The position numbers were made by a program, and so were the translations under genes. From Methanomassiliicoccaceae archaeon (GTDB taxonomy: Archaea > Thermoplasmatota > Thermoplasmata > Methanomassiliicoccales > UBA472), in contig CAVVVD010000007.1 in the NCBI GenBank assembly GCA_963751645.1, forward strand, positions 327,841 through 391,840: a stretch of 64,000 nt of DNA, read 5' to 3'. This document shows, in pieces, positions 66 through 45,108 of the stretch; within the stretch, counting starts at the first letter, position 1; the number at the start of each line of letters is the position of its first letter. Below the pieces are notes generated by a model. The model saw only the letters and a program-made list of their open reading frames with translations, had not been told where the DNA came from and made no database searches.

Positions 66-1352
66 ATGAACTATTCTGAGCATACGCTGGCCTTGTTGAA
101 GGGGGCGAGCGCCAAGGAGGGAGACACCCTTTTGGTCAGGGTCGAGGGTGGGGAACAAGAGGGATCCTCATGCCCCACCACGATTTCAGCGACCCGGACG
201 TCATCGTCCTCAAGCTGAAGAGCGGTTACAACATCGGGTCCGGCTCACTGAAGGCGCCGATGTGAAGGTGATCGCCCAGGCCGAGGAGAGGGCCCGACCT
301 CACCGCCGTTCCGGGCACGACCCGAAACTTCCCACGGTGGCCATCAAGGGACCGGGGCACCATCGCCTCCGACGTGGAGCTATAGGACCGGGGCCGTCCA
401 TCCGGCGATGTCCGCGGACGACCTCCTTATCGGCCGTCCAGGATATCCTCCATCTGCAACGTCAAGGCACAGGGCTCGATTCGATCTTCAGCGAGAACAT
501 GGACGCCCAAGCCTGGTCGGGCCTCGCCAGGGCGATCCTTCAGGAGATCGAGGCAGGGGCGAACGGCGTCATCATCCCCCATGGCACGGACACCATGGGC
601 TTTACCGCCGCCGCTCTATCGTTCATGCTGGAGGGCCTCGACCGGCCGGTCGTGCTGGTCGGGGCGCAGCTCCTCCGACGACCCTCCTCCGACGCCTACA
701 CCAACCTGGTGGCCGCGGCGCTTCTCGCCACCGCGGACGCCTCCGGTGTCTTCGTGCTGATGCACGAGGGTCCCTCGGACAGCTCCGCCCCGGTGCACCT
801 CGGGACAGGGTGAGGAAGATGCATTCCAGCCGTAGGGACGCCTTCCGAAGATCAACGCCGCCCCTGTGGCACGGGTGAACTTCGAAGGCAACATCGAGTT
901 CCTATCGGAAGATGCGAGGCGGGGCGCTGGTGAACCATCGCTGCACGATCGCATGGAATCGAAGGTGGCGTTGCTGCAGTTCTATCCGGGAAATGGACCC
1001 AGAGAGCTACTCGGAGTTGCTAATGGCGCATCGAGGTGTAGTGGTGGCGGGTTCCTGGTTGGGGCATGTCTCCGCCCTGATGGTGAAGGTGATCGCACAT
1101 GCCGTTCTCCCGAGGGGTAACCGTGGTCATGACGACGCAATGTCTGCATGGCCAGATCAATCTCAATGTCTATGCCACAGGGAGGGACCTCATCAATGCC
1201 GGGGTCGTGCCCGGTGGGGACATGTTGCCCGAGACCGCGCTGGTGAAATTGATGTGGGTCCTTGGCCAGTCCAAGGACCGGACCGAGGTGGAGCGGCTCA
1301 TGGCCACCGACCTCAGGGGTGAGCGCTCGTCCAGGAGGAGATCGATGGTTGA
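66..1352 (+). CDS. gatD: Glu-tRNA(Gln) amidotransferase subunit D (split by several 1-nt frameshifts, probably sequencing errors)
   Basis: ATG at 66. Motifs across frames: [76 protein letters not shown]. End approximate. Confidence 0.9.
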
Positions 1353-13245: not shown

Positions 13246-15163
13246 TCACATTTCTAGGCCGAACCTCTCCACCACTTCCACATCACCGGGCGGCAATATG
13301 CGGGATATCTCCTCCTCGGGGACCTCGAAGACCTTGGCCAACTGGGCCGACAGCTTGCCACGTGCGAGCTCGCCAGGCACGATGATGACGAAGCGTTGCG
13401 AACGCGCCCTCACAGCCTCCTCCGGTCCGCACATGATCTTCCTCGCGCCCTCGTGCTCGATCTCGCCCACAGCCAAACGTAGGGGCAGATGATGGAAGTA
13501 GTTGCGTTTCCCCCTTATGATGAACCCCCCTCTGGGGACGAACTCCCCCGCTTCCGGGGTCTTCGAGACCTGGTCCGGCACAACCCAATAGGCGCTTCCC
13601 TCGCTCACGCCCGCCCCCCAAGCCTTCGAGCTGGCCAATGCGAAGGTGCAGACCTGGCGCATCTCCTCCTCCCCCGCCTCCGACCCGTTCTTGATGATGA
13701 CGCTGGCGGCACCGTGTAGGTCGGCGTGGGCATAGCGGTCAGGATCGCCCAGGTGCTTCTTCACCAGCTGCTCGTTCGACCGGGCGTCGCGACCGCCGAG
13801 GACCAGTCGATTCTCGGAGCTCATGAACCAACGATACGTCTCGAACCAGAACTGCTTGGTCGGCTTGGCCTTGACCTTGGCGGCCCTCGCCACCTCCTGG
13901 CCGTGCCTCTGCCGGTCCTCCACCTTCTTTTCCGTCTCCATCAATGCCTGTTCCGCCCCACGCATCTTCTCCTTGGCCTCCTTGGAGTTGGAGAACAGCA
14001 GGTTGGCGTTCTCATCGATGGAGAGGCGATAGTTCAATGGCACCTCGGCCTCGTCGATCCGGACCACTATCAAGTCCTTTTCCGGTTCCACCTTGACGCA
14101 GAAGGGCAGCCCCTGGGCGAAATCGCGCATCTGCTCCCAATTGAGCTCTTCAGCCTTCTTGCCCAGTACCGATAAGAGCTTTACGACCTCGGCATAACGG
14201 GCGTAGAGGCGGTTGGCCTTGTCGGCCAGGTCCACGCTCTCAGCCCTCAACCGGTCCACGCTCTCCGCCTGCTGCTCCCTTTGTCTCAGGAGCCTTTCCA
14301 GCTCCTCATCGCGCACATCCTCGGCGTCCGGAGCCTTTGCTATGATATATTCGTCCAGGGCATCGGAGAACGTCGGGAACGCCTCAGCCTCCAATGCGGC
14401 ATCCTGGAGCAGAGCGATGGGGGCCACATCGACGGCGTGCTCGGGGCCATAGTAGACGGTGGGCTGAGGCGTGTCCAGTCGGAGGAAGAGCTGCTTGATC
14501 GCCGATGACAGGCCGACGATATCCTCCTCGACTAGGGACTTGGCCTTGCGGTTCTTGTCCACTCCCGCGACCAGACAGGCCTCCTCGGCATACTGCCCTC
14601 CCATGTTGCCGGCGGTGGCCAGGGTGCGGATCGTGTCCGCCGTCGACGCGGATAGGGCCTCCCTCCATGCGGGCAGGTCCATGAGCAAGGGATGAGGACG
14701 GGAAGGTGGGAACTGATAGTCTATCCCGATGCGGATGTCGCGGTGCCTCCAGGTCTTCTGCTCTATGCAGTTGGCGATCTTGCCATCCTGCACCACCAAA
14801 AGGTTGCCCTCACCGAACAGCTCGAAAACTACCTGGTAGCTCCCTTCCCTGTTGCCCATGTCTCAGCACGATGATGCGGTCGAACTCCCTTTGCCAGACC
14901 GCAGTGACGCGAGCGTTGTTGAGCATCTTCCTGAGATGCACGGCGAATCCGCCCGGAGTGTCTGGCGTTTCCGGCCTGTCCTTGGGCATGTAGAGCCATT
15001 TGCCGTCCTTGAGCAAAAGCTCCCGCCTTCCCCCCGGGGCATTGATGCGGAACAGCACGCTGCGCCTGTCCCAGTGGAACACCTTGTCGACGAATCCCCC
15101 CACCAGGCACTGCATCTCCTTCGACATGGCCAGGACGTCGAAGGCCGTCATCTCGCGCTTCAT
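13246..15163 (-). CDS. rqcH: RqcH/NFACT ribosome quality-control protein (frameshift near 14860)
   Basis: MKREMTAFDV, FDRII, ELFGEGNL, WFETYRWF, GGRDARSNEQLVKKH, HADLHGA, VSKTPEAGEFVPRGGFIIRGKRNY. Confidence 0.88.
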
Positions 15164-15278
15164 CGCGCACCGATGTGCGAGGTGTGAGAATAACCTTTCC
15201 AAAGGACCTTGCTGGACCCGGTCCATGAATACCAATCAGAAAGGTTTATGAATGAATATCCGGTTGGGGAGGCCCACT

Positions 15279-21217: not shown

Positions 21218-21622
21218 TCACCTCTCCAACAGGGACAGGGCCCCGGTGGGGCAAGCGTCCAGGCACAAACCGCACGCGATGCACCTATCGCTGTGGAAGA
21301 CGACCTTGTAGTCGTCACCTTTCTCAAGGGTGTATGATTCGAAGGGGCAGATGGACACGCACATGCCACAATCGCTACATCGTTCCTCGTCCTTCTTTAC
21401 AAGGCTGAGGAGCTCCTTGACCTCGACCTTCGAATCCCTCAGGTAGTTCAATCCTTCCTCCCGTCGGGCGCCATCTATCTCCAGGAGCAGGTGTCCGCCC
21501 TGCTCGTTGATGTCCGCTCTGAGTATGTTGATCTCCAGGTCGAAGTCTCGGACCAACCGGAAGGTGACTGGCTCCTTTATCAGCCTCGGGGAGAAGTCCA
21601 GTACATAGACGTTCTTGCCCAT
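21218..21622 (-). CDS. NIL-domain 2x[4Fe-4S] ferredoxin, partner of the DUF39 sulfurtransferase
   Basis: INILRA; CSDCGMCVSICP and CIACGLCLDACP. Confidence 0.88.
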   Translation of the reverse strand: MGKNVYVLDFSPRLIKEPVTFRLVRDFDLEINILRADINEQGGHLLLEIDGARREEGLNYLRDSKVEVKELLSLVKKDEERCSDCGMCVSICPFESYTLEKGDDYKVVFHSDRCIACGLCLDACPTGALSLLER

Positions 21623-22800
21623 CAGATCCCCTCCACGACGCTGCGGACCTCAAGGGCCCTCTGTGCCTGTTCCTGGGGCAATGGCTCTACCGGTTGGCTG
21701 ATGAGGAACTGTCCTTTGGTTATCCAGCTTTTCAATGTATCGGCGATCTTGCGCGCCTTGCGATAGCTGGATAACGACGAGGTGCGCACCATCTTACCGT
21801 TGATATCGATGGTCCCGCTGCGAAGCTCCGCATAGCTGACCTCTTTGATCGGTTTGCGCGCCCTTGTCTGATAGGCATAGTCCAGGACGGGTGCGAATAT
21901 CTCAGCGTCTGAGACAGCCGCCGCCCTCAGGACCTCCTCGTCCAGTATGGGGATGGGGACACCGATGCCCACACATAGCGAGGTCCCATACTTGTGGAAA
22001 TATAACGACTCCAGGTACTCTGGGCTCATCTGCTTCAGGTCCCCCGACACGGCAAGGGCCCTGGCCGCGGCTTTGGGCACCCCATTGTGCAATGGCACAT
22101 TGGTCTTGTACTGGGTACCTTCCCAGGATACGTATCCTATACCGCCTCCCAAGAATATCCGAGTACCGATCCCTATGGTGCGCAGGGTCGGGTCGTTCAA
22201 CAATGGTGACAGTTGACCCGCGCTGCAGTAGGTGGCATTACCGAAATGAGGGAGCAGCTTGCCCATGTATGTGTACAGGGTCTTATCCGTACTATTTGTG
22301 GCAACGGCATAGTTCTGATACATGTTGCGTGGGTTGTACAGATACGCCTGGTTGATGTTCTTGAGCGAGATCCAGGTATCGATCTCCCTACGAGGATAGC
22401 AGTCCGTTCCATATGCTGTGGCACGAAGTCTAACGGAATCCCCTTTGACCAGATCCTCGATGACATGGGCGCCACCGTAGCTCAAACCGTCCCCCTCGCG
22501 TAGCTCCGTGGCACCGATATATGCGTCCACCGCTGCCAACCCAGTATAGGCCGGGACATCGTTGAGCCACACCTTCTGCATCTTGATCGGCGGTTCTGCA
22601 TGACCGAAATTAAGGAATGCACCGGAGGAGCACATGGCCCCGAAGGTGCCGGTGGTGACTACGTCAACCTCTTTGGTCGCCTTCTCTAAGCCCTTTTCCT
22701 TGACCAGGTCGATGACCTCTTCCGCCGTAAGTACGACGGCATCACCGCTCTTGATCTTGGTATTGATCTCCTCCACTGTTCTTTTCATTTTCTCACTCAT
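21622..22800 (-). CDS. DUF39 homocysteine biosynthesis protein (L-aspartate semialdehyde sulfurtransferase type), no CBS domains
   Basis: RTVEEINTKI, VDVVTTGTFGAMCSSG, YGGAHVIEDL, TDCYPR, NPRN.YQNY, GQLSPLLNDP. Confidence 0.88.
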   Translation of the reverse strand: MSEKMKRTVEEINTKIKSGDAVVLTAEEVIDLVKEKGLEKATKEVDVVTTGTFGAMCSSGAFLNFGHAEPPIKMQKVWLNDVPAYTGLAAVDAYIGATELREGDGLSYGGAHVIEDLVKGDSVRLRATAYGTDCYPRREIDTWISLKNINQAYLYNPRNMYQNYAVATNSTDKTLYTYMGKLLPHFGNATYCSAGQLSPLLNDPTLRTIGIGTRIFLGGGIGYVSWEGTQYKTNVPLHNGVPKAAARALAVSGDLKQMSPEYLESLYFHKYGTSLCVGIGVPIPILDEEVLRAAAVSDAEIFAPVLDYAYQTRARKPIKEVSYAELRSGTIDINGKMVRTSSLSSYRKARKIADTLKSWITKGQFLISQPVEPLPQEQAQRALEVRSVVEGI

Positions 22801-22860
22801 TCTTGTCCATATGTTCATTTTTCCGTCACTTAATGCTTATTTTAGACGCTAAAAACATCG

Positions 22861-23916: not shown

Positions 23917-26007
23917 TCATCGCTTGGCGGGGACCGGGCTGCCAACGATCCCGAAATCATAGTCCACGCTACCAAGGTTCGGGCTGATCACGATGCAGGC
24001 CGACTTGAGGGTGGAAAGTTGCCAGATACGGTACAAGGCGTCGTTGTATCCGTTCACCTTGAGGTCGATGACGCTCACTGGCCGGTCCCATCGGTACATG
24101 ACCAAGGTCACGATCCATGAGACGTCGGGGTAGACCGGATCGAAGGTGTTGAGATCGATGTTCAGCCCGTCCACTACCACCTCGTTGATGGACCAGCCCT
24201 CACCAGTGGTCCCCCAGTCGGTCATGTAGCGGAACTGCACCCATACCTTCTTGCCATTGTACTCGGACAGGTCGAAGTTCAACCAGGTCCAATCCCCACT
24301 ACTTCCTGTGAACCCCGGTAGTTGGTCTGGAATGGACGGGTATAGCTCTTGGTTAGCGGCCTGCGCCTCCTCCGCGGTGACCGTAACCCCCTCCAGGGAC
24401 AGGGATGTCCATGTCTTCCCATCAGTGGAAACCTGCACCATGCCATAGTCCCAATCCGGTTCGATGTCGTACCAGGTATAGATGGACAATGAATGGTCCG
24501 GTCCGCGTTGGCTGAGGTCGATCTGTCCCCGCAGTTGTAGGTCGCTCTCGTCGTTCGCGCCTGACCACCAGGACCCATCCATCAATTCCCATCCCTTGCT
24601 GGTATCCTTGTCATCGCCGCTGAAGGTGAACTTGGAGTTCAATCGTTGCTTGACCCTCATCTTGTCCTGGGTGACGTAGATGTAGTCAGTCCCATAGGCG
24701 CCAACGGTGGTGGTGGCAGTATCCCCGTCATAGTAATCGGAACGTGAGACCAACCCCGCACTCTGTCCATAGTTCAACAGCGCTAAGGATGAATAGTCGT
24801 CCAGATCGATGGACTTGTAGTTGTACAGGCCATTTCCAGGCGTATTGGCATGGATGAGATTGGCCAATCTCCAGGACTTGAAGACCTTCTCGAAGTTCCA
24901 GCTCTCATGACCGCTCATCTTCAGGGTATCGGTCACAGAGTCTGTCCCGGTCTTGTTATTGTTGAACAGATCTTGAATGATGGTCGAACCTCCGAAATGG
25001 TCGTTCAGGTACATCATGAACAGGACAGTGGCACCATAATCGGCCAGGATATTATCGTCGCCCTGGTCGTTCCACATCGTCAATGAGTTGCTAGGGTCCT
25101 GCAAGTACTCGCTGATGTGGCTGGCCATGGCCTTGCCATATCCACAGAGGAACTCAGCGTAGTCAGCGCAACCCTCGTTGATCCAGGTCTCCTCGGATGA
25201 ATCAACGAAGTCGTGCAAAAGGTGCTGGTACTCGTGGGCCACAACCCCTTCGTACAGGAATGGTCGCCTTGAGTCGTTCCCGGTCCGGTTGGCCCAGTCC
25301 CTGCAATCGATATTGATCATGTTACGGTCATATTGCATAGCCATGGTCGATGAGTAATATCCAGAGATGTAGATCGGGTAGGTCGGGTCGTAGAAGTTCT
25401 CATCGCGGATATTGGAGATCATTATCATGGTCTTGTGACCGTCGGTCGTGTTGAATGTGTCAACATCTCCATAGTAGTCAACGATCACAGCGTTGGACCC
25501 GTTAAAGATGGGCGCCTCCGAGAAGAAGTCCGTCTCTATAGGGTAGATATTCTCATCGAACTGGTCAATCATATAGTCGACCTGCTCGTCCGTGATAGAG
25601 TATTGGGACGTGAAAGCGTTCCGGGGATCCCCCCAGGGGTAGCTCATGTTATCCTGCACCCATATCTCGCAATTGATCCCCTCCCCGCGCTTCACCATGT
25701 CAACTTGGTCATAATCATCGGTGTAATCGTTTGAGATCAAATAGCCCTTCACAGTTCCATTGGAATCCCCCGCGTTCACATCTTCGACGATGGGAGCGGC
25801 GGAGTTCGCGTCACGAACACCTTGGAAATATCCAGACATTTTTGACCAAGCGAACTTATCTGGACTGAACATCATCGGCTCTGGCTCTGGATAACTCGTC
25901 CCTATCTTCTCGGCCTCAGAATCTTGAGGCACCAATATCACCATGGCCGTGAGAACCATAAGTAAGACGGTGACCAGACTGAACAACTTCACTGTAACGC
26001 TCTTCAA
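23917..26007 (-). CDS. Secreted Zn metallopeptidase (HExxH...NEG) with immune-inhibitor-A-type MAM-like domain
   Basis: N-terminal signal-like helix; AHEYQH, WINEGCA; WYDIEPDWDYGMVQVSTDG, FDLSEY.G, FRYMTD. Confidence 0.8.
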   Translation of the reverse strand: MKSVTVKLFSLVTVLLMVLTAMVILVPQDSEAEKIGTSYPEPEPMMFSPDKFAWSKMSGYFQGVRDANSAAPIVEDVNAGDSNGTVKGYLISNDYTDDYDQVDMVKRGEGINCEIWVQDNMSYPWGDPRNAFTSQYSITDEQVDYMIDQFDENIYPIETDFFSEAPIFNGSNAVIVDYYGDVDTFNTTDGHKTMIMISNIRDENFYDPTYPIYISGYYSSTMAMQYDRNMINIDCRDWANRTGNDSRRPFLYEGVVAHEYQHLLHDFVDSSEETWINEGCADYAEFLCGYGKAMASHISEYLQDPSNSLTMWNDQGDDNILADYGATVLFMMYLNDHFGGSTIIQDLFNNNKTGTDSVTDTLKMSGHESWNFEKVFKSWRLANLIHANTPGNGLYNYKSIDLDDYSSLALLNYGQSAGLVSRSDYYDGDTATTTVGAYGTDYIYVTQDKMRVKQRLNSKFTFSGDDKDTSKGWELMDGSWWSGANDESDLQLRGQIDLSQRGPDHSLSIYTWYDIEPDWDYGMVQVSTDGKTWTSLSLEGVTVTAEEAQAANQELYPSIPDQLPGFTGSSGDWTWLNFDLSEYNGKKVWVQFRYMTDWGTTGEGWSINEVVVDGLNIDLNTFDPVYPDVSWIVTLVMYRWDRPVSVIDLKVNGYNDALYRIWQLSTLKSACIVISPNLGSVDYDFGIVGSPVPAKR

Positions 26008-31631: not shown

Positions 31632-33609
31632 TCACATCTTTACGGTTAGGGTATATTGTGCGTAGTCGGTTATCCCTTCAGGAGCGCAATACGTTATCAG
31701 CATCGCCACCTTGGAATACATGGTAAGGCTCGACATCAAGATGCCAGCCATCTCGGTCACGTCGCTGAACATGACCTTGGAGATTGTGTATGTGGTGCCG
31801 AACATCGTGGTGCGGAAACCGACCAGGGTGAGCATGAAGTCGTTCTCGATCGGGAGTACCTCAGTGATGTCCATGAACACCGAGGCGTCCTTGCCGTCAG
31901 AGATCAACGCACCATCGACATAGACGTTGTCGATCCACCATCCACCATAATATAAACTCGTGTCCGTTACCATACGGAACCCGATCAGGATGTCTTGACC
32001 AGCATAGGCAGAGAGGTCAAAGGTCAAGGACTTCCATGAGGTCACATAACTTGTGAGACCAGGTAGGTTCTCAATAACCTTGGGGAGGGCGTTAGGATCC
32101 GGGTTGGAATCGGTATAGGCGTTGGCCAGGCTCTTCCACGTGTGACCGCCATCGGTCGACACCTGCACGAATCCATAATCCCAATAATCCTCCAGGTCCC
32201 ACAAGGAATCGAATTTCAGAGTCCCTCCACCCTGGGCTTCAAAGATGGCCCAATTGTCGAGCATATTCCCGGTCCCGGACCAGAGCACGTTTCCGTCCGA
32301 TGTCCATCTCGTGTCTTGGGCGTTGGTGTCCGCCCCATCGAAGACGACCTGCTTGGCGTTCTTCTGCAACCATATGTAATCCGTGCCCCAGGCCGGAGCT
32401 CCAGGGGTCGCAAATGCCTCAGGGTTCGGTGCGGACGGAGTACCAATGTCTATCTTGAAGTTCTCTCCTTTGAACCCATACTGGTAGTTGTTCATCGACC
32501 AATCGATGAGCAATGCCACAGAGAAGTCCCTATATAGATCGGCAAACCTCCTCGGGGTCCCAAATGATGCCAACGCCGAGTTGATGCCAGAGATGCCATT
32601 CTTCGGTTCGTTGAACATCTTCTTGATCATCGTGGTCCCGAATTTCTCGTATAGGAACAAGGTCCACATGTAGACCAATCCATAATCGGCTAGGACCTCC
32701 AGGCCGCCCTGGTCCTCCCATGCCACCAAGGAGTTCTCTGGATGCGTTACAAGGTCTCCGGTATGGGACACTGGGCTTCCATATCCACACAAGGGTATGG
32801 AGAAGTCCGCTAACCCCTCATTAACGAACGACTCCTCATCAGGATCAGAATCACTCATCAAACAGATGCTCCATCTCATGTGCGATGATGCCCTCGTAGA
32901 GGTATGGTCTGGATCCTCCCGAGCCCATGCGGTTGGCCCAGTCGTAACTGTCGATGCTTATGACGTTCCTATCGAAATATGCCTCAAAGATGGGGAAAAG
33001 AACCCAGCGATATAATTCGGATAGGTAGGATCATAATAGTTCGCGTCCCTGATGTTGCTAACCAGTATCACGAATTTATCTCCTGCATAATAACCGGCTG
33101 GGAAATACCCCCAATCTTCCAGGAGTGAATAGGTTCCATCATGATGATCAGGAGCCCGGAAGTAGTCGGTCATCTTAAGACTGATGACGTTCTCATATTG
33201 GCCTAATAGATAATCGACCTGAGCCTGCGTCACGACCGGGGTAGACAGGATCTCCGGCGGGCCATGCAAGATTGGTTTGGACCCAGATCTCGGCCGATGG
33301 ACCCACTGCCACCTTGTAGAAGTTTGCGAAATAATAACCGGACGTATCATCCAAAATCATCCATGTTTTTACTTCCAGGATGTTCAACGAGGGTGTAGCA
33401 GAGATGGATGCCGCGTCCGACTCAGCATTCCCATTAAGCGATGCGCCCAACCCGTCTTCGGACACATGCCAGGACCGAATCTCCGGCCCTGCATCATACG
33501 GTCGATAATCAGGCAATTTCGCTGTCGCCGCATCAGCATGCTGGACGGGATAAAATAACACCACCAACATGAGTGCCGCTACAGCTATTGGTATCAATTT
33601 CTTGTACAT
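31632..33609 (-). CDS. Second secreted Zn metallopeptidase, paralog of 23917..26007 (multiple frameshifts)
   Basis: Signal peptide MYKKLIPIAV; QVDYL, SNIRDANYYDPTYP.YIAG, AHEMEH, FVNEGLAD, WDLEDYWDYGFVQVSTDGG, FDLSAYAG across several frames. Confidence 0.75.
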
Positions 33610-34665: not shown

Positions 34666-35001
34666 TCACGATCTGGTGGGAGGATCGCATATGGCTTTCG
34701 TGATGACCTCGGTGAGCTTCTCCTCCGTGGGCACTCCACCGAAGAGCGCCAGCACCTCATTGATGAACAATGCCGGCGTGATAGCCGAACCATACTTCTG
34801 GAACATAGGTCTGATGGGGGCCATGTAAGCGTACTGCATGCTCATCAGGGCGTCCGTGACGGTAACGAGTTCCAGGTCCGCCTCCCAACTGTTCTTCGCC
34901 AGGACCTCCTTGATCAGATCGGCGTATCGTCTGTCGTACTGGGCGAATTTGGGGTCACAACACGCGAACGAGAGGATGGTGAGCTTCAGCTTACTTGCCA
35001 T
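34666..35001 (-). CDS. Thioredoxin-fold CC-motif protein (ArsD/MTH895-like)
   Basis: N-terminal FACCDP; TPALFINE...GGVPTEEKL; overlaps arsA stop. Confidence 0.65.
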   Translation of the reverse strand: MASKLKLTILSFACCDPKFAQYDRRYADLIKEVLAKNSWEADLELVTVTDALMSMQYAYMAPIRPMFQKYGSAITPALFINEVLALFGGVPTEEKLTEVITKAICDPPTRS

Positions 35002-35911
35002 AGAGCACCTCACCGACCATACGGATCCGGTCTATGCCATAGATGTCCGTGTCGAACAAGGGTACCTCCCTCTTGATCTGGTCGGGGAATCGCACCTCGA
35101 TCTCCTGGAGGTACCTGTCCTGGGTGGCCCTCCTCCTTTCCAGGAACCAGTTGCCCTGGAGCACATCTTTGGGTATGACCTCGTTGATGATCATGGCTGG
35201 GACGTTGATCCCAAAGCCCTTGAGGTCGGTGATGGCCCTGGCCGTCTCCTCGATGGGGAGGCGCTCTGGCAGCAGGACCAGGTTGAACGCGGATATGCTC
35301 TCGTCGCTCAATCCGCGAACAGCCTTATCGTAACGCTCCTTCTCCACCTTCAGATCGTCGACCATCTTTTCATCGTAGACGAAACCCAGGGCCTCGGACA
35401 GCTCACGTCTGTTCTTGATCTGGTTGGTCATATAGCTGGACCAATCGAAGGGCATGGAGAGCTCCCGCAAGGTGTGACCGGTGGGAGCGGTATCGAACAC
35501 GACTTTGTCATGGGTCGTGTCCTCGAAGAATGATACGAACTGATCGAAGGCGGCGATCTCCTCGGTGCACGGGGTGCTCAGCAGCTCGCTTCCGAAGAGC
35601 GTGGCGAACCCGGACAAAGTGCCCTCCAGTCGCGTCTGGAACATGCCCATGGCCTTCTTGGGGTTGATGTTGAGGCCACAGAGGTTCCTGGCCGTCCCTA
35701 TCTTGGTGATCTCCGTCTCGCTGATGCGCTGCTCATATATCGCAGATAGGCTGACGGTAGGGTCCGTAGCCACGATCAGGGTGCTATATCCATGGTCCCC
35801 CAACCAGGTGGCGGCCGTCGCTGCCATGGTTGTCTTCCCAACGCCACCTTTACCACCGAAGAATAGGAACTTCCGATCCTCAAGGATCTTGCGCAGATCG
35901 TCTTGGCTCAT
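34991..35911 (-). CDS. arsA: Single-domain ArsA/GET3-family ATPase
   Basis: GKGGVGKTT, TDP, PCTEEIAAFD, FDTAPTGHTLR, PE.LPIEET. Confidence 0.88.
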   Translation of the reverse strand: MSQDDLRKILEDRKFLFFGGKGGVGKTTMAATAATWLGDHGYSTLIVATDPTVSLSAIYEQRISETEITKIGTARNLCGLNINPKKAMGMFQTRLEGTLSGFATLFGSELLSTPCTEEIAAFDQFVSFFEDTTHDKVVFDTAPTGHTLRELSMPFDWSSYMTNQIKNRRELSEALGFVYDEKMVDDLKVEKERYDKAVRGLSDESISAFNLVLLPERLPIEETARAITDLKGFGINVPAMIINEVIPKDVLQGNWFLERRRATQDRYLQEIEVRFPDQIKREVPLFDTDIYGIDRIRMVGEVLYGK

Positions 35912-35924
35912 CGTTCCTGAGAAT

Positions 35925-35949
35925 GTAACCAACGTCAGATAATGGTTAC
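35925..35949. promoter_or_regulatory. Inverted repeat between arsA and heliorhodopsin
   Basis: GTAACCA-N11-TGGTTAC just upstream of the arsA start. Confidence 0.35.
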
Positions 35950-36107
35950 CCTCGTTGGATTCAAACATCATGCGCTATTATACGGTTACTTCCCAAATGC
36001 GTAAGCGATCATCCAACATGGTATATCTGGACATATGAATGGAACGACCCGCGACCCAATGAAACTATTATATCCAATAGGCTCTCTTGATTCCTCAAGG
36101 TGATTTA

Positions 36108-36894
36108 TTGGGAGTTAAATTCGTTGATGCTACAGAGGAGCAGAAATTCGCCAAGTTGAGGAAATTCAACATTGGGGCCGGATTCCTGCACTTATTCCAA
36201 GCTATTTTGATGCTCGTAATTGCCAACTACGCGGTGACGATGACATTCACGACATCATTCCTAGATGCCGCGAACGGGTATCCGCCGACCGTGCCATCCG
36301 TGCCCACCGAACTGTTCTCCGTGGCCGTGGGTCCAATGGTGGCCTTGTTCCTGATGCTATCGGCGATAGCACACCTCAGCGTGTCGACATATGGTTATGA
36401 TTGGTATGTGAAGAACCTGAAGATGGGCATCAACAAGGCCCGGTGGTTCGAGTACGCCCTCTCCTCCTCGATCATGTTGGTGGTCATCGCTTGGCTCGTC
36501 GGCATGTTCGATTTCGTATCGATCTTGCTACTGTTCTGCCTCAACGCCTGCATGAACCTGTTCGGGTACATGATGGAGCTTCATAACCAGACCACCAAGA
36601 AGACCAATTGGACCGCTTTCTACTTCGGCTGCTTCGCCGGGCTCATTCCTTGGGTGGCCCTCATGATGTACTTCTTCGGGGTTTCTGGTGGGAGTCCGCC
36701 GACGTTTGTCTATGGCATATTCGCCTCGATAATCATCTGCTTCAACATCTTCCCAGTTATCATGGTGCTCCAATACAAGAAGGTGGGGAAGTTCAAGGAC
36801 TATCTCTACGGCGAATATTGGTACATCATCCTGAGCCTGGTAGCTAAAACGTTATTGGCCTGGCAGGTGTTCAGCTGGTACCTTGGTATCATAA
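36108..36894 (+). CDS. heR: Heliorhodopsin
   Basis: 7 TM; LRKFN, GFLHLFQ, SAIAH, N..RWFEYALSSSIM, FGYMME, PP.FVY, GE..YIILSLVAKTLLAWQVF. GGTGA RBS before TTG 36108. Removing one A near 36873 gives FAGTLVS-stop at 36894. Confidence 0.93.
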
Positions 36895-38443
36895 ACATCC
36901 AGACAAACCTTTTCCTATCATTTTTCCTCTTTCCATAGACTCCTCAGGATATCGATGGACCTGGCCGTAGGTCTTGAGCTCCTTGCCATCCAGGAAAGAT
37001 ATTGTCCCATGGCCTCCACAGACAAGGCATGGTCTTTGCCCGTCAACATCAGAGAGCTTCTTGGCCAACTCGATCAACACTCGTCTTTCCTGGTCCGCTC
37101 GTACGCTGTCGACGTTCACCGTCGTCATCAGGTTCTTGGCCAGCAGATTATAGCGTGAGCGCTCCTCGTTCAGGCTCTTGAAGTTGATCAAGCTATCACC
37201 TGTGAAAAGCACCCCCTCCTTCTCGGCGACGAAGAACACCTGGCCATGAAGGTGGCCTCCCAAACCATCGAGCACCTTCAGCGTCATATCGCCCACCCGG
37301 ATGGAGCCGATGACATTCAGGCCCATCACCTCCCCGATGGGGGTGAGGTCAAAGAGCTCCATTTCCTCTGGCGGTCTGAACGCGGAGAAAAGGTTGATCA
37401 GCTTGGTATAGACGGCCTCGAGCACCGAGCTTTCCGAAACGGACCCATAGGCCCGATTGGCGGCGTTGATGATGTCCGCCGTCCCTGGATGGACGTATAC
37501 TGGTGCGGGGAAGGACCAAGCCCCGCCAGAGTGATCGGCGTCGGCGTGCGTGATATAGATGCCCCTCAATCGGGACATGTCCCCCAATCCGTAATGGGCC
37601 AGCATATTCCTTCAGATCATCCTTGTATTGACCGTATCCCGTGTCGATTATGACCATGCCTTCCCGGTCATTCAGAACATAGATGTTACCGCCACAAGGA
37701 GGTTGGAAGCAGAACAGCTCCACCTTCTCGGTGACATCGATACTCTGCACTTCCGCATAGAAGTCCGGCCCCGTCGACATCTTCAAGGCCCGTCCCGTTT
37801 CGAGAACGCTATTGAACACAGCCTTGGGGTCCATGTCCTGATTGGTGAGCTCCTGGACGATGTGGTTGATGTCCGATAGCAGCTTCATGAGGAACTGGTC
37901 CTCATGGTCCCCGATGATCTCACGCAGCTCCTGGGCGAAACGGATGTAGAAAACGGTGTCATCCAGATGCTTTCCGGTGACATCGTACTCGAGGATCTCC
38001 AACGGATAGCGCGACCTCAGTTGTTCCAAGAGCCGATCCAGCTTGGTAACGTCATCCAATGTCAAAGAGATGGTCACCTGGTCAGGGTGCTTGCTCTGGT
38101 CATCGAAGTCCAAGAAGGCTATGTTGCTGTGGGCGGTGGTGGTGTAGTGCAAGAACTCGAACAGGGCGCCAGCACGATGGGGCAAGACCACCTTGAACTT
38201 AAGGAAACCCAACTTGGTCAGGGACGTCTGCAGGAAACCGATCGCCTTCAACTCCCTTTCGATGGAAGCATATTCCACCGGATCGCAGATGACCTCGAAG
38301 AAGACCACATAGGGGTCGATGCGCCTATCATAATGGATGCGTTCTATGTTCCCCCGGTAACGCTTGACGATCTCGGCGGCGGTATGCAATGCCCCCGGCT
38401 CGTCAGGCATGCGAGCGATGAAATAGAACTTCTGGGTGCTCAT
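36889..38443 (-). CDS. Tandem ACT-domain + MBL-fold hydrolase (frameshift near 37605)
   Basis: MPDEPGALH and LPHRAGALF ACT starts; IDTGYG, THADADH, GGH, FTGD, GGHG. Confidence 0.8.
36905..36934 (+). terminator. Pyrimidine-rich terminator after heliorhodopsin
   Basis: AAACCTTTTCCTATCATTTTTCCTCTTTCC just after the inferred stop. Confidence 0.45.
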
Positions 38444-39544: not shown

Positions 39545-40162
39545 TCACGGTCGGGTATGGATGAGTCCCATGGCCCGGGACAACATGTCCCTCATGGTGG
39601 AACCGGTCTCCATCCAGCTCAATCGTTCCATCGTCAGATAGGCCAAAGTGAAGGCGAAATAGGGCACCAGGTAGTACCAGGGGAACCAACCCAGGGCCAT
39701 CATCAGCACGAGGGCGACGTCGCTGAGGGGACGATACATCATGATCCACCGGACCAGCTTGTGCGCCCCCGCCTTTTGGGCCAGGTCGTCCACAACCTCG
39801 TCGAGGAACCCGGCCAGGATGAATATCACCAACGGCACCAACAGGATGACCGGGTCGGTGGAAGGCCAAAGCACCAGCAGGGTCGCCGTGGCGGTGAGGG
39901 TCCCGATCAGGAACGCACGATTGTCTATCTTTCGCGCAAGGACCAGGCTGATGACCATCGCCCCGAAGAAGGCGGTGGAGAATGGGGTGTCCATGGCCAT
40001 GAGCCCTCCCATGGTCAGGCCCGCCAGGACGGCCAGCAGATTGGCGAGCTTTCGGGAGTAACGTTCCTCGTCGTATGCCTGGTCTATGAACTTTATCGCT
40101 GCGCCCAGGAAGGCGTAGAAAATTACGATCATATAGATGGGCAATGAAAATAGGAAATCCAT
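39545..40162 (-). CDS. Multi-pass membrane protein, unknown function
   Basis: Hydrophobic ORF with IKFIDQAYDE, KIDN, DE motifs. Confidence 0.65.
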   Translation of the reverse strand: MDFLFSLPIYMIVIFYAFLGAAIKFIDQAYDEERYSRKLANLLAVLAGLTMGGLMAMDTPFSTAFFGAMVISLVLARKIDNRAFLIGTLTATATLLVLWPSTDPVILLVPLVIFILAGFLDEVVDDLAQKAGAHKLVRWIMMYRPLSDVALVLMMALGWFPWYYLVPYFAFTLAYLTMERLSWMETGSTMRDMLSRAMGLIHTRP

Positions 40163-40368: not shown

Positions 40369-42234
40369 ATGACGCCCCGAGGACGCGCTCTTACGATGGT
40401 CATTGCGATCACGATCACGGTCGGTCTACTATTGACCGGAATGTACTTCCTTTGGCAACCCTCCAGCCAGGAGCTTCCAGCTGGTAACCTTCCAGCGTTC
40501 CAGACCGACCAACAGCTGCGGACATATCTGGACGACCGCGGGTTAGACCAAGGGCGGTCCATGTATGACAGCATGGAGGCGGCGAGCGGGGCGGAACCAT
40601 CGATCAAGAATTTCCATTCCAAGACCAATATCCAGGTGGCGGGAGTGGATGAGTATGACACGGTGAAGACGGATGGCACCTATCTTTACATCGTCTCAGC
40701 AGATCGGGTGAGCATAGTGAGGGCGTACCCGGCATCGGAGATGGCGAACGTCTCCCATATATTGGCCCAGGACCTTCTGGACGATGATGAGCTCACCATA
40801 TATCTGATCGGCATCTACATCCTTGAGGAGCAGTTGATCATCGTCGGTCAGGTCTATGAGTCCTATGGGCCCCTGGCATACGATGCCATTGACATCTGGC
40901 CCGGCATCATGAGGGGTCAGACCATGGTCTTCCAGGTGGATGTGAGCGACAAGACGGATCCGGTCATTTCCCATCGCTATGCCATCTCAGGATACCATCT
41001 CACCTCTCGTCTCATCGATGACAGGCTCTTCGTTGTGACCGACCAGTACATTTGGTATAGCAACGATCAAGAGATGCCCATGGTCTGGCATGATGACGTC
41101 GGTGCGCAACTCTCCCCCCAGGACATTCGCTTCGATCCAAATGCCAGCTACGTAGGTTCCTTCACAAATATCCTCGGGATAGACCTAGGTGCGGGCTCGT
41201 ACAATGCCACATCGGTGCTGACCAGCTATACCAGTATCATCTATGTCTCCCAATCCGACATCTACCTTACCTATGTGGATTGGCCCAGTGCCATGGTCTG
41301 GGTATCGGAGGGGGATGGGAACGATACCGCGGTGGCCCGGGCCGAGCCCACCATGCCTCAAACGACCATATATCGATTGGAGCTGCAGGGCATATCGGCC
41401 GTCCCGGTGGCCAAAGGTGAGGTGGACGGATTCCTTCTAAACCAGTTCTCCTTGGACGCCAAGGACGGGGTGCTTCGCCTGGCCACCACTAGCGGGTGGC
41501 AGGACCAGGAGAACATGGTCTTCACTTTGGACCATGACCTCCAGGTGATGGGCCGCCTCGATGGGCTCGGTCTGAACGAGAGCATCCAGTCTGCCCGCTT
41601 CCTCGATGACACCCTTTACCTGGTCACCTTCGAGCGCGTCGACCCGTTGTTCGTGATCGATCCTCGGACCCCTATCACCCGACCGCACTGGGAGAGCTCG
41701 TCCTCCCCGGCTTTTCCTCCTACCTGCATCCCCTCGGCAACGGCCTGCTCCTGGGCGTGGGCACGGGAGAACTCTACCCTCAAGCTGTCCATCTTCAATG
41801 TGAGCGACCCGTTGCATCCGGTGGAGGTGCAAAGCTTCAGGGCGCAGGGATGGGCCTACTCCGACGCCCAATGGGACCACAAGGCTGTCCTCTTCGACGA
41901 GAGGAATGGTCTGTTCGTCGTGCCTGTACATTCGTACGACCCCACCAACTGGACGGGACAGCAATCGACGTACGTGTTCGAGGTCTCGGTCGATGGCATA
42001 GGGCTCAAGGGCGTGCTGAGCAATGGCGAGACGGAGAGCGCGTCCCGCTCCGTGGTGATCGAGGACTCCCTCTACACCATCTCCTGCAATGTGCTGGCGG
42101 CCTGGTCTTTGTCCGACCTGGAGGCGCAGGGCAAGTTGTTCTATGACGACCTGTTCCTGGACTGGTATCAATATGGCGGTGTGCCGGTCGAGGCAGAGGG
42201 CTCGGAAGGAGCATCGGGTGGTAAGGCGCTCTGA
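40369..42234 (+). CDS. Membrane-anchored beta-propeller protein (Beta_propel type)
   Basis: N-terminal TM; SKTNIQVAGVDE.D.VKTDG.YLY, LLNQFSLD, LRLATT, E.I.SARF, VTF..VDPLFVID, HKA. Compensating frameshifts about 41660-41765 (GFSSYLHP in alternate frame). Confidence 0.85.
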   Translation: MTPRGRALTMVIAITITVGLLLTGMYFLWQPSSQELPAGNLPAFQTDQQLRTYLDDRGLDQGRSMYDSMEAASGAEPSIKNFHSKTNIQVAGVDEYDTVKTDGTYLYIVSADRVSIVRAYPASEMANVSHILAQDLLDDDELTIYLIGIYILEEQLIIVGQVYESYGPLAYDAIDIWPGIMRGQTMVFQVDVSDKTDPVISHRYAISGYHLTSRLIDDRLFVVTDQYIWYSNDQEMPMVWHDDVGAQLSPQDIRFDPNASYVGSFTNILGIDLGAGSYNATSVLTSYTSIIYVSQSDIYLTYVDWPSAMVWVSEGDGNDTAVARAEPTMPQTTIYRLELQGISAVPVAKGEVDGFLLNQFSLDAKDGVLRLATTSGWQDQENMVFTLDHDLQVMGRLDGLGLNESIQSARFLDDTLYLVTFERVDPLFVIDPRTPITRPHWESSSSPAFPPTCIPSATACSWAWARENSTLKLSIFNVSDPLHPVEVQSFRAQGWAYSDAQWDHKAVLFDERNGLFVVPVHSYDPTNWTGQQSTYVFEVSVDGIGLKGVLSNGETESASRSVVIEDSLYTISCNVLAAWSLSDLEAQGKLFYDDLFLDWYQYGGVPVEAEGSEGASGGKAL

Positions 42235-42248
42235 CGCTGGGAGAGCAC

Positions 42249-42872
42249 ATGAAAGGAATTAATCTCGGAGAACCGCCTATCGTCCTCGGAGAGAGCAAGT
42301 TGCGCGTGGAACTGGACAGGAAGGCGCTGTTCGCATTGGCCTCCGACACCAGGTTGGAGATACTGAAGGCCCTGATGTCCGAGCGCCGGACCGTCTCACA
42401 GCTCGCCGACACGCTCGGTGTGGACAAGGCGGCGGTCTATCGCCACCTGAAGAAGCTGGAGGAGGGCGATTTCGTGAAGAGGGAGGACGACCACGGGTTC
42501 GTCTATTATCGTCTGAGCTGGAAGGCCAGGGACATCATCTCGCCTGGTGAGAACACGCGCATCATCGTGCTGATATCCTCCTCCATCGTCCTGATGGTCA
42601 TAGCCGCATTCCTCCTCATCGGTCTTACGGCTGGGTCGTCCACACCATTTCAAGATGCCCAGGAGGCCGGGAATGATTATGTGCCGACAGACGGTCGAGA
42701 CCCTGGCCTGGGAGGGAACGACGACACATTGTCATATCTGGCGATCGGTCTGATCGCATCGATCTCGTTGATCTTGGTCATCTGGGCGGCCCGAACGTTA
42801 TGGCGACCGAAACAGGCCGACCCCCTCCCGGACGGGACCTTGGACGCCCAAGCGGTCGCTCTGGACGATTGA
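42249..42872 (+). CDS. ArsR-type winged-HTH regulator with two C-terminal TM helices
   Basis: ALASDTRLEILKAL...TVSQLA...AVYRHLKKL...YYRLS; then two hydrophobic segments. Confidence 0.8.
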   Translation: MKGINLGEPPIVLGESKLRVELDRKALFALASDTRLEILKALMSERRTVSQLADTLGVDKAAVYRHLKKLEEGDFVKREDDHGFVYYRLSWKARDIISPGENTRIIVLISSSIVLMVIAAFLLIGLTAGSSTPFQDAQEAGNDYVPTDGRDPGLGGNDDTLSYLAIGLIASISLILVIWAARTLWRPKQADPLPDGTLDAQAVALDD

Positions 42873-42932
42873 GCCTCTCATTTTCGCTCACCCTTGCGGC
42901 GAGCCTTTATATCTTCATTACCTGATGAAAAT

Positions 42933-43680
42933 GTGAAGTGGAAGAGCCATCGGGCCATCACCAGAGAGGTCTGTGCAGCTCTTGGTCTGGAGGACCGATA
43001 TTGCGAGCTGATGGTCGCGGGTGCGGTGGAGCCCGACCGACATCATGAGGTGAGAAGGGATCGGCGTGGTCTGTACAGAAGGGTAAGGCATCATGGCTCC
43101 CCGAACAGCGTGATCATGATGTTCGTGTGGAAGGCCCGAATGGCATTCCTGGAAGGGGACTTCGAGGAGGCCAGCCGGGACATGGGGCGGGCCCTGCATT
43201 ACATCCAGGACCGGTCGGTCTCCAAGGGTTGGCGGGGGCTATCCCATGACCGTAGGGAGGCCGCCGTCGCGGAGGTCCGGGTCCCGGTGAGGGCCATCGA
43301 GATAGGCATCGAGGGCGCGGTATCCTCGCCGATTTTCGTCCGCGAGTGCATCCTAGCCACGAAGGAGCAGCGAGAGCCAGTGCGCAGCGTCTTCCAGGCG
43401 AGCATGATATCGGCGGCGGTGGCCAAGGCCGTGGTCTCAGACCCAGACCCACCTTTTGGCCTGGAGCAGATGCTCACACGGGCAAAATGGTCCTATGTAT
43501 TTGTGGCCTGGCCGGCCGCATTGGGGGCAGGTCTGGGGATTTGTGTCCTATGTTCGAGCTACTGGACAATGGTGGGCGGTGGCCTTCCTCCCTCTGTCCT
43601 TGCTCCCTCCCATCCTCGCCTGGTCCCGCCTACGGAGATTGAGGACCGTCGCTCTCTGGTATGGGTTGACGGAACCGTGA
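42933..43680 (+). CDS. Zn-dependent phospholipase C/P1-nuclease-fold-like protein with C-terminal TM (frameshift near 43570)
   Basis: W..H N-terminus, GAVEPD, HH, GRALHYIQD, HD..E. Confidence 0.6.
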
Positions 43681-43731
43681 CCGGAAATGAATTAACCCTC
43701 GTTCCACCCTCTTACGAGGGAAGGAATACCA

Positions 43732-45108
43732 ATGAAGCTACCAGAGGACCCCTCCCTCAAGGTCGATGCTGATGCGGGCAGGCGGGCCATGATACTTTTC
43801 GAAGGTAAAGGAAGAGGTCCGGTCATCTATTGGATGAGCCGGGACCAGAGATCCTCGGACAATTGGGCCCTTTGGCATGCCTATCGGATGGCTATGGCGA
43901 GGAAGGTCGAGCTGCGCGTGGCCTTCTGTCTTGCGCCGGACTATCTGGGAGCGACGGACCGTCATTACCGCTTCATGCTTAGTGGGCTGAGGGAGCTCGA
44001 GGGCGATCTGGCCAGGAGAGGTGTTCCCTTCGACCTGCTGCAGGGAGACCCTACCAGGTTGATGCCGAGATATCTCTCGTCCCATGACGCAGGAGCGCTG
44101 GTGATGGATTTCGACCCACTCCGGACAAAGACACGATGGCGAACGGACGTAACGGAGCAGGTGGATTGCGATTGCGTGCTGGTCGATGCCCACAACATCG
44201 TGCCTTGCTGGGTGGCATCACCCAAGAAGGAGTATGCCGCGTCCACCATGCGCCCCAAGCTCGGTCGGCTCCTGCCAGAGTTCATCGGATCGCTACCTGG
44301 CCAGGTGCCGAAACTGGCCAATGCCAAGGTTAAGACCACAGTGGACTGGGCGAGCCTAATTCGCCCTGGGCCGCTGACCGGCTCTGACCAAGCCGACCAT
44401 CTCCCGGGCGAAAGGGCGGCCCGGGGTCGCCTGGAGGACCTCCTATCCTTCCGGCTCAAGGGATATGCGGAGAATCGCAACGACCCGAACTTGGACGGGC
44501 AGTCCGGGCTTTCACCGTACCTACATTTCGGGATGATCGGCGCTCAGAGGGTGGCCTTGGAGGTCAAGGCATCCCAGGCCCCATCGATCGACAAGGAGGC
44601 CTTCCTTGAGGAGCTCACCGTTCGCCGGGAGCTCTCCGACAACCTATGCCATTACGATCAGGGGTACGACAGCGTGGCATGTCTGCCATCCTGGGCCCAG
44701 ATGACGCTGCGCAAGCATGAGTCGGACAAAAGGGACTATGTCTACAGCTTGGACGAGCTCGAGGGGGCGAGAACGCACGACCCGTTATGGAATGCCGCCC
44801 AGGTGCAGATGGTCACCTCCGGCAAGATGCACGGTTATCTGAGGATGTATTGGGCCAAGAAGATACTGGAATGGAGCAGGACGGCGGGGGAGGCCATCAC
44901 TAGCGCGATCATCCTGAACGACCGCTATGAGCTGGACGGCCGCGACCCCAACGGATATGCTGGCATCGCCTGGAGCATAGGTGGGTTGCACGACCGAGCC
45001 TGGCCTGAGCGGCCTATTTTCGGAAAGGTCCGGTACATGAACCTCAATGGTGCCAGGCATAAGTTTGATGTGGACAGGTACGTCGAACGCTGGTCGGTCG
45101 GTACCTAA
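43732..45108 (+). CDS. phrB: Class II CPD photolyase
   Basis: YWMSRDQR..DNWAL, VDAHNIVP, SGLSPYLHFG, RRELSDN, GKMHGYLRMYWAKKILEW, LDGRDPNGY, FGKVRYM. Confidence 0.93.
   Translation: MKLPEDPSLKVDADAGRRAMILFEGKGRGPVIYWMSRDQRSSDNWALWHAYRMAMARKVELRVAFCLAPDYLGATDRHYRFMLSGLRELEGDLARRGVPFDLLQGDPTRLMPRYLSSHDAGALVMDFDPLRTKTRWRTDVTEQVDCDCVLVDAHNIVPCWVASPKKEYAASTMRPKLGRLLPEFIGSLPGQVPKLANAKVKTTVDWASLIRPGPLTGSDQADHLPGERAARGRLEDLLSFRLKGYAENRNDPNLDGQSGLSPYLHFGMIGAQRVALEVKASQAPSIDKEAFLEELTVRRELSDNLCHYDQGYDSVACLPSWAQMTLRKHESDKRDYVYSLDELEGARTHDPLWNAAQVQMVTSGKMHGYLRMYWAKKILEWSRTAGEAITSAIILNDRYELDGRDPNGYAGIAWSIGGLHDRAWPERPIFGKVRYMNLNGARHKFDVDRYVERWSVGT

Follow-up and report, generated by a model that had tools for sequence, protein, structure and literature searches.

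A heliorhodopsin gene with a class II photolyase gene nearby in a Methanomassiliicoccaceae genome: family, neighbourhood and reading frame

The gene at 36108..36894 of the 64,000-nucleotide stretch of DNA analysed here (the window; G000:C7:327841-391840, 55.7% G+C, no N), from a Methanomassiliicoccaceae archaeon, is confirmed as a genuine heliorhodopsin (HeR). A class II cyclobutane pyrimidine dimer (CPD) photolyase gene lies 6.9 kb from it, and the two genes are also close in related genomes. The reading we favour, with chances that we consider evenly poised, is that of a functional HeR of a Methanomassiliicoccaceae methanogen with the photolyase as its most likely client. The gene is a further member of an already annotated kind, and the novelty implied by a preliminary description of this DNA was overstated: relatives are already annotated as HeR in NCBI, and both Thermoplasmata HeRs and HeRs of blh-free organisms appear in the available parts of published accounts (PMC9585477, PMC8612252, 10.1101/2021.02.16.431466). 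What the present analysis adds is a frame error in the gene, its distribution across the order, and a conserved linkage with a class II photolyase gene.

The protein matches the Pfam Heliorhodopsin profile (PF18761) with an E-value of 2.5e-93 and 312.3 bits (cut-off 26.7) over residues 24-263 and profile positions 1-239 of 242, and the NCBIfam equivalog NF038020, 'heliorhodopsin HeR', with 300.1 bits (cut-off 100). Both scores are far above the cut-offs, and the search against family profiles that the preliminary description proposed as a check agrees with its assignment. The PDB matches comprise six distinct sequences, all of them heliorhodopsins, with TaHeR (6is6) as the best (E 1e-67). An AlphaFold2 model based on 29 aligned sequences (mean predicted local distance difference test score 89.6, predicted template modelling (TM) score 0.83) has seven helices, and strands 44-49 and 67-73 form a beta-hairpin in its first outer loop. 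Compared by Foldseek, the model and 6is6 give TM-scores of 0.89/0.91, a root-mean-square deviation of 2.1 Å and 48% identity. The TM-scores are 0.88-0.89 for 48C12 and at most 0.52-0.64 for type-1 rhodopsins.

All the heliorhodopsin signatures named in the preliminary description (two transmembrane His, RWxEY, FGxxME and SLVAK) are present. With residues numbered from the TTG at 36108, they are located as follows.

36189..36191, + strand: His28 in transmembrane helix 1, equivalent to TaHeR His-23; invariant in 29 sequences
36372..36374, + strand: His89 in transmembrane helix 2, equivalent to TaHeR His-82; invariant in 29 sequences
36441..36455, + strand: RWFEY (R112-W113-F114-E115-Y116), with Arg112 and the counterion Glu115 equivalent to TaHeR Arg-105 and Glu-108 in the alignment
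36561..36578, + strand: FGYMME in transmembrane helix 4 (F152-G153-Y-M-M156-E157), from the alignment
36834..36848, + strand: SLVAK, the SxxxK of helix 7, with Ser243 and the predicted retinal-binding Lys247 (TaHeR Lys-238); S243 and K247 invariant in 29 sequences

The cavity residues described for TaHeR are His-23, Gln-26, Ser-78, His-82, Arg-105, Glu-108, Glu-227, Lys-238 and Trp-243 (PMC9385722). Their counterparts are H28, Q31, S85, H89, R112, E115, E236, K247 and W252, all nine invariant in the 29 aligned sequences, and the retinal pocket is complete. TaHeR (Thermoplasmatales archaeon SG8-52-1; PDB 6is6, 7clj, 7u55) is of the same family and fold, shares all the named cavity residues and comes from the same phylum-level group of anaerobic sediment archaea. 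Its host belongs to a different order, whereas the host here is of a methanogenic lineage; the HeR described here, known from sequence, is longer by three residues in extracellular loop one and by two in the third such loop. Fifteen Lys and Arg residues are found on the N-terminus and loops 2, 4 and 6, against none on loops 1, 3 and 5, so by the positive-inside rule the N-terminus is predicted to lie in the cytoplasm. This inverted topology, the family hallmark, had also been given in the preliminary description, with which the computed count agrees. The gene is under strong purifying selection, with ratios of nonsynonymous to synonymous substitution (dN/dS) of 0.053 and 0.049 (dS 0.36 and 0.43) over the first 260 codons against two relatives of the same genus.

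The candidate client is encoded downstream of the HeR gene.

43732..45108, + strand: class II CPD photolyase, candidate HeR client (PF00875; PDB 8oet/2xry, E ~1e-142; TIGR00591 phr2, 567 bits against a cut-off of 550)

Fifteen genomes from four genera (four of g1, eight of g2, two of g8 and one of g7) carry HeR and photolyase genes on the same contig at a distance of 3.7-11.7 kb, and a photolyase gene lies within the 6-kb HeR flank in six loci of relatives. Across all 98 HeR loci, eight have a photolyase within the flanks examined. In two bacterial loci, L067 (Erysipelothrix) and L074 (Acholeplasmataceae), the end of a class II photolyase gene is ~250 nt from the HeR gene. In the order as a whole, sampled evenly as 201 genomes of at least 80% completeness, HeR is present in 62 genomes and 18 of 34 genera, and photolyase in 48 genomes, 42 of which carry HeR. 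Both genes are thus found together in 42 genomes, HeR without photolyase in 20, photolyase without HeR in 6, and neither in 133; all 12 photolyase-bearing genera fall among the 18 that bear HeR. These counts come from related genomes, which are not independent samples, and describe a pattern rather than a test. By family, HeR is found in 33/40 sampled genomes of the host family (f1), 10/20 of f6, 5/7 of f5, 3/4 of f3, 1/1 of f2, 0/1 of f4 and 9/127 of f7. Among the 41 related genomes, the window's own included, 27 carry HeR, as do 20 of the 24 other genomes of the family.

A partnership of this kind has a published precedent. The HeR of Trichococcus (TfHeR) is reported to bind a class 2 CPD photolyase with a dissociation constant of 21.7 µM, to raise CPD repair ~3-fold and extend it to green light, and to act through the loop residues E97, R162 and K227 (PMC9769723). 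Photolyase is also listed among ten recurrent groups of HeR neighbours (PMC11109279). Because of the gene neighbourhood and the TfHeR precedent, the photolyase is regarded as the likeliest client, and a role of HeR as a regulatory helper of the class II photolyase would be the best-supported mechanism, one that could as easily fail as hold. Lysines are present in the HeR at 164/165 and at 224/225/228/230; any HeR would be expected to carry positive residues on its cytoplasmic loops, and they have no discriminating value here. The TfHeR/TfPHR system of Trichococcus flocculiformis likewise has HeR and a class II CPD photolyase in one neighbourhood, but there HeR, photolyase and DUF2238 form one operon (PMC9769723, as far as its available part goes), whereas here the two genes are 7 kb apart in separate transcription units and DUF2238 has no match. 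Archaeal HeRs near PhrB/photolyase, read as light-stress sensors, are also described for Thermoprofundales subgroup E and for the zinc-ribbon HeRs of Thermoplasmatales; their clusters include carotenoid genes (CrtB and others), and some of the proteins have an N-terminal zinc ribbon (PMC9585477, PMC8612252). The HeR described here has no zinc-ribbon extension, and phytoene synthase is found in one of the 41 related genomes.

Several observations weigh against the photolyase as client of a light-sensing HeR. The two genes do not form one operon, as four to six genes on both strands separate them in the window and in relatives. They were seen close together only in four genera, all of one family whose members are not independent, and 20 of the 62 HeR-positive genomes have no photolyase match. 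The affinity of TfHeR for its photolyase is weak (the value above; PMC9769723), the 41 related genomes encode no source of retinal, and the DNA nearly identical to the window comes from sediment metagenomes, where light is scarce; sequencing runs with only small shares of such DNA, from wetland and other places, were disregarded for habitat.

The preliminary description took the host to be probably one of Methanomassiliicoccales, and the nearest loci agree: 18 of the 23 found in the species-genome collection are titled Methanomassiliicocc- (the other five are one Candidatus Methanomethylophilaceae, one Thermoplasmatales archaeon, one without a name and two Anaerolineae), and the gene order of the HeR region is common to the window and these loci. 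The term putative methanogen, also used there, is supported by relatives rather than by this assembly. The gene mcrA (PF02249) is found in 39 of the 41 related genomes, in all four of the same genus and in all 24 of the family. In the window's own assembly (1,187,945 bases in 9 contigs, rated 59.4% complete and 0.37% contaminated), no mcrA, mcrB, MtaB, MtmB or MTTB was found, while MvhD/FlpD gave four matches. This genome measures 1.19 Mb against 1.7-1.9 Mb for the same genus. The 40 kb around mcrA of G002 and of G004 have no DNA counterpart in it, and the mcr neighbourhood of G002 has no orthologous proteins there, only scattered matches at 24-52% identity. With the mcr neighbourhood lacking a counterpart and the assembly smaller, the absence of mcr is best read as missing assembly.

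By analogy with the family, all-trans retinal would form a protonated Schiff base with Lys247, and Glu115 would be the counterion. Light would isomerise the retinal, with the proton retained inside the protein close to His28 and His89; a long-lived state would signal via the cytoplasmic loops to a partner protein, with no ion movement. From the neighbourhood and the precedent, we infer that this partner is the nearby class II CPD photolyase, the pair being a possible light-damage response module; retinal binding and signalling, like the identity of the client, thus have the standing of expectations, as does light sensing itself. If the HeR-photolyase link holds, light would count among the environmental cues of a widespread group of methanogens from wetlands and sediments, and the only biochemically shown HeR-photolyase partnership would be extended from one bacterium to archaea. 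A wider and more doubtful version, which we put forward tentatively, is that environmental Methanomassiliicoccaceae possess a 'light island' of vertically inherited HeR, class II photolyase and two conserved genes, in which light sensing with scavenged retinal would switch on DNA photorepair. None of the island genes encodes a route to retinal, which would come from phototrophs or detritus, and, more speculatively, light sensing might also serve to shield light-sensitive cofactors of methyl-dependent methanogenesis. HeR/photolyase content would then mark the split of the order into light-exposed and host-associated members.

The known final step to retinal is an oxygenase reaction. That no retinal-biosynthesis gene lies in the window, as had been stated before, holds throughout the lineage: above the cut-off, blh/BCD (PF15461) is found in 0 of the 41 related genomes, RPE65 in 0/41, and phytoene synthase in 1/41. 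Since the genomes encode none of the known pathways and the final reaction depends on oxygen, retinal would have to be imported, i.e. taken up from outside the cell. Weak BCD matches (E 1e-3 to 2e-6) in nine of the 41 genomes were rejected as blh; they are below the cut-off, cover profile positions 126-255 only, and mostly contain an internal stop. The sole phytoene/squalene synthase match (G020:C8:8368-9111, E 1.5e-50) is isolated, in a HeR-positive genome. Type-1 rhodopsin had no match in the window's own genome, but the control genomes gave none either. In the available part of Chazan et al. (10.1101/2021.02.16.431466), blh is described as rare with HeRs, co-occurring mainly where another rhodopsin is present, and organisms with HeR as the only rhodopsin as generally without it. 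A missing retinal pathway is thus typical of HeR-only organisms and not unusual here, and its lineage-wide absence makes a clean anaerobic case for their open question of chromophore source.

A light-sensing HeR could also serve another client, as a general switch for oxidative-stress or metabolic proteins; we consider this possible, though improbable. The adjacent candidates are encoded by the following genes.

34666..35013, - strand: thioredoxin-like protein, paired with the ArsA/GET3 gene (34666..35971 together), from profile matches
34991..35971, - strand: ArsA/GET3-family ATPase, divergent from HeR, from profile matches
36889..38443, - strand: ACT-ACT-metallo-beta-lactamase-fold (ACT-MBL) gene, convergent with HeR; in relatives one open reading frame (ORF) of 495 aa, here split near 37611

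Candidates for such a client are the ACT-MBL-fold enzyme, the ArsA/GET3 ATPase with its thioredoxin-like partner, and, unlinked to HeR, glutamine synthetase or an ABC transporter. The order thioredoxin-like, ArsA, HeR, ACT-MBL is conserved: among 35 related loci (some of them the same genome twice), 16 have ArsA upstream of HeR and 19 have ACT-MBL downstream of it. Published neighbourhoods tie HeR to redox, glyoxalase and glutaredoxin genes (PMC8612252) and to ten partner groups (PMC11109279). Against this, ACT-MBL is present with no HeR match in G017, G027, G029, G033, G037 and G038, and in genus g4 it lies far from HeR (1.79 Mb vs 0.49 Mb in G019, for example), so the adjacency may be inherited gene order. 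ACT-MBL is convergent and ArsA divergent relative to HeR, so neither shares a transcript with HeR. The idea that ACT-MBL is a dedicated partner of HeR is unsupported, as the gene occurs both in genomes without HeR and apart from HeR.

The HeR gene presents a frame problem. The stretch flagged by the preliminary description contains one open frame, which, as assembled, encodes 283 aa from a TTG. The span 36108-36894 proposed there is 787 nt long, not a multiple of three, and therefore cannot be a single frame: its start is supported by conservation, but its end is the stop of the +1 frame. The elements of the gene are listed below.

36087..36938, + strand: HeR open frame as assembled, 283 aa with a 21-residue C-terminal tail foreign to the family
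36108..36894, + strand: HeR in its most likely true reading, from a TTG start to a TAA stop (36892-36894), 261 aa when one extra base is left out; from profile hidden Markov models, the DNA of relatives and the database protein P0002
36873..36876, no strand: site of the extra base, with the frameshift 7 codons ahead of the family stop; a gap in L012, L014 and L015 and in an X1 contig
36066..36073, + strand: putative TATA-like box TATTATAT, ~38 nt upstream of the start codon; A/T-rich, partly conserved in three relatives
36097..36104, + strand: Shine-Dalgarno-like AAGGTGAT, from the DNA alignment with relatives
36910..36934, + strand: T-rich tract, a putative archaeal oligo-T terminator, 3' of the stop and inside the 3' end of the convergent gene

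When the window DNA was aligned with the three closest loci (L012, L014 and L015), the TTG at 36108 and AAGGTGAT were found conserved in all three relatives, and the upstream TTG at 36087 was not; the start at 36108 is well supported. In all four aligned sequences CTCAAGGTG is kept, and the full CTCAAGGTGAT is found in the window and L012/L015, L014 having GTT there. The promoter, ribosome-binding site and end signals are plausible. The preliminary description had credited the gene with its own TATA box, ribosome-binding site and terminator: the first two have counterparts in the partly conserved TATA-like box and the Shine-Dalgarno-like motif, while the last is a T-rich tract with no hairpin. 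A scan designed for bacterial promoters and terminators found no hairpin terminator after the HeR stop and nothing relevant 3' of it.

Relative to L012/L015 and L014, the window has one surplus base within GTGTTC-AGCTGG (36873-36876). As assembled, the gene lacks an uninterrupted frame to the family C-terminus: the tail reads SWYLGIINIQTNLFLSFFLFP up to the stop at 36938, in place of the last six family residues, (A/S)GTLVS and stop. The proteins of relatives end in WQVFAGTLVD or WQVFSGTLVG, and the PF18761 match of the window HeR stops at profile position 239 of 242, while in most relatives it extends to 242 and in a few to 241. P0002, the nearest protein in the databases, is 97% identical, 261 aa long, begins with LGVKF and ends with WQVFSGTLVS. 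Removal of one base at 36873-36876 from the window gives exactly these ends, from 36108 to the TAA at 36892-36894. In a comparison with independent metagenome contigs over 35900-37800, an X1 contig spanning 36827-37017, with 7 mismatches and a depth of 2.6, is one base shorter at each of 36875 and 36930, and a second X1 contig continues from 36872 with the sequence of the relatives. Because the close relatives, P0002 and an independent contig are without it, the extra base is very probably an assembly error.

Other genes of the window look broken in a similar manner. A single surplus base near 37611 turns the ACT-MBL gene into two ORFs that overlap; contigs of two runs, X1 (14 mismatches over 741 nt) and X2 (3 mismatches over 265 nt), lack one base at 37611. 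NFACT, at 13246-15235 (-), is broken into two neighbouring ORFs, one matching NFACT_N positions 3-100 and the other 110-425, and at the beginning of the window (148-3210) a GatD-like ORF with an asparaginase domain and a GatE-like ORF look truncated too. The split NFACT and truncated GatD/GatE-like genes fit many single-base assembly errors, and the completeness of 59.4% in just 9 contigs would fit insertions that break marker genes.

A HeR truly frameshifted in this strain, with a new hydrophobic extracellular tail of 21 residues or at the onset of decay, is unlikely. The assembled frame does read through to 36938, the X1 contig without the base at 36875 is only ~96% identical at a depth of 2.6, which leaves room for a real strain-specific frameshift, and HeR copies with internal stops or in pieces are found in relatives (G043, G107, G004, G010 and G040). 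A frameshifted gene would, on the other hand, be at odds with a dN/dS of 0.05 over the first 260 codons, with the frame retained in relatives, with the similar splitting of other window genes (the ACT-MBL extra base is absent in contigs of 98-99% identity from two runs), and probably also with the low completeness despite 9 contigs, as expected of marker genes broken by insertions or deletions. The assembly's single-base insertions break genes, and the HeR tail and the 'split' neighbours need a check against the reads before any biological reading. HeR-like stretches with 5-10 internal stop codons (G043:C1:1016265-1016993 and G107:C11:267125-267880) are probably decayed copies.

RNA evidence for HeR was sought among metatranscriptome contigs. 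Those of a single library, X21, on 36120-36848 (one at 95-99% and eight at 90-95% identity) come from a relative, and are unusable for expression because contigs cannot show transcription; their thin cover on the HeR flanks is meaningless, since the flanks are less conserved.

It is very improbable that HeR has no role in light and is a chromophore-free apoprotein with another membrane function, or a neutral leftover. The lack of a retinal pathway in the 41 related genomes and the strictly anaerobic, sediment-dwelling character of the lineage would suit such a protein, and one relative's title carries the isolate name RumEn M2, presumably a rumen enrichment. The retinal lysine and all cavity residues are, however, invariant under strong purifying selection, HeR accompanies a light-dependent repair enzyme and is rare (9/127) in f7, the largest family of small genomes, and HeR-only organisms are generally described as lacking blh (10.1101/2021.02.16.431466, in its available part). 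Light-driven proton transport, cited for some viral HeRs in PMC11109279, is so improbable as to be set aside, since the nearest solved relatives are TaHeR and 48C12, non-viral HeRs have no shown pumping according to the available part of PMC8612252, and no transport-specific feature was identified in this HeR.

Among 8000 candidates scored in the protein search, 7378 proteins had E-values of 1e-40 or below, of which the closest with a name are annotated as 'heliorhodopsin HeR [Methanomassiliicoccales archaeon]' or '[Candidatus Methanomethylophilaceae archaeon]'. In a quick tree of 92 rows (SH-aLRT support, 6 identical rows merged), the window falls in a 22-row clade with a support of 99, labelled Methanomassiliicoccales or same family save for one Thermoplasmatales archaeon row and one metagenome chromosome. 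Two more HeR lineages of the order lie elsewhere in the tree, which makes at least three separate lineages altogether. The NCBI HeRs of Methanomassiliicoccales (P0005, P0010, P0012 and P0018, for example) and P0002 belong to the same clade, are 72-97% identical and 257-262 aa long; the window's host is a different species of the genus, and its copy differs in its one-base frame problem at the 3' end. Among the matched record titles no cultured HeR-bearing member of the order was found, all being metagenome-assembled genomes (MAGs) except one metagenome chromosome and 'RumEn M2', which has no MAG tag in its title. We found no report of HeR in Methanomassiliicoccales in the literature, judged mostly by listings and abstracts. 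The schizorhodopsins of Methanoculleus are also retinal proteins in a methanogen, but, as described in bioRxiv 10.1101/2025.10.20.683367, they are of another rhodopsin family (inward proton pumps) and another methanogen order.

A tandem second HeR, 47% identical to the first, is present at L020:1720-2514, L021:5034-5828 and L030:5100-5852 and forms a separate lineage in the tree. L046 and L099 hold HeRs on MAG contigs titled 'uncultured Gammaproteobacteria bacterium', which group with Patescibacteria HeRs; they represent either mis-binning or an exception to the reported monoderm-only rule.

Two further conserved genes lie between HeR and the photolyase.

39545..40162, - strand: conserved multi-pass membrane protein, between HeR and photolyase in relatives
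42894..43772, + strand: conserved gene overlapping the photolyase start, just upstream; conserved in relatives, no family match

The order conserved in relatives is thioredoxin-like (-), ArsA/GET3 (-), HeR (+), ACT-MBL (-), membrane protein (-), 42894-type gene (+) and photolyase (+). In the window two more genes, for a beta-propeller protein and for an ArsR-type regulator, are inserted between HeR and photolyase, and the four close co-directional genes at 40369-45108 (+), namely beta-propeller, ArsR-type helix-turn-helix, phospholipase C (PLC)-like and class II photolyase, are likely an operon. The two inserted genes are absent from this place among relatives whose flank reaches the photolyase; they are placed as in the window in L014/L015, and elsewhere in the stretch in L025/L026. 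The membrane protein was considered as DUF2238, the third gene of the Trichococcus operon, and rejected, with no Pfam match even at E <=1; the Atlas gives only archaeal clusters without names for it. The 42894..43772 product has a weak lead to Zn-dependent PLC-like proteins (feature score 0.91; PF00882 on 20% of cluster members), which, only as a lead, would fit the lipid-remodelling theme in the available part of Chazan et al. (10.1101/2021.02.16.431466).

Elsewhere in the window, a gene for HcyBio (COG1900-type homocysteine biosynthesis) is followed by one for a NIL-domain ferredoxin (21218-22818, -), a pair which we take to be typical of methanogens. Two large proteins with an InhA-like MAM domain are encoded at 23917-26007 (-) and 31632-32879 (-), with uncharacterised genes between them.

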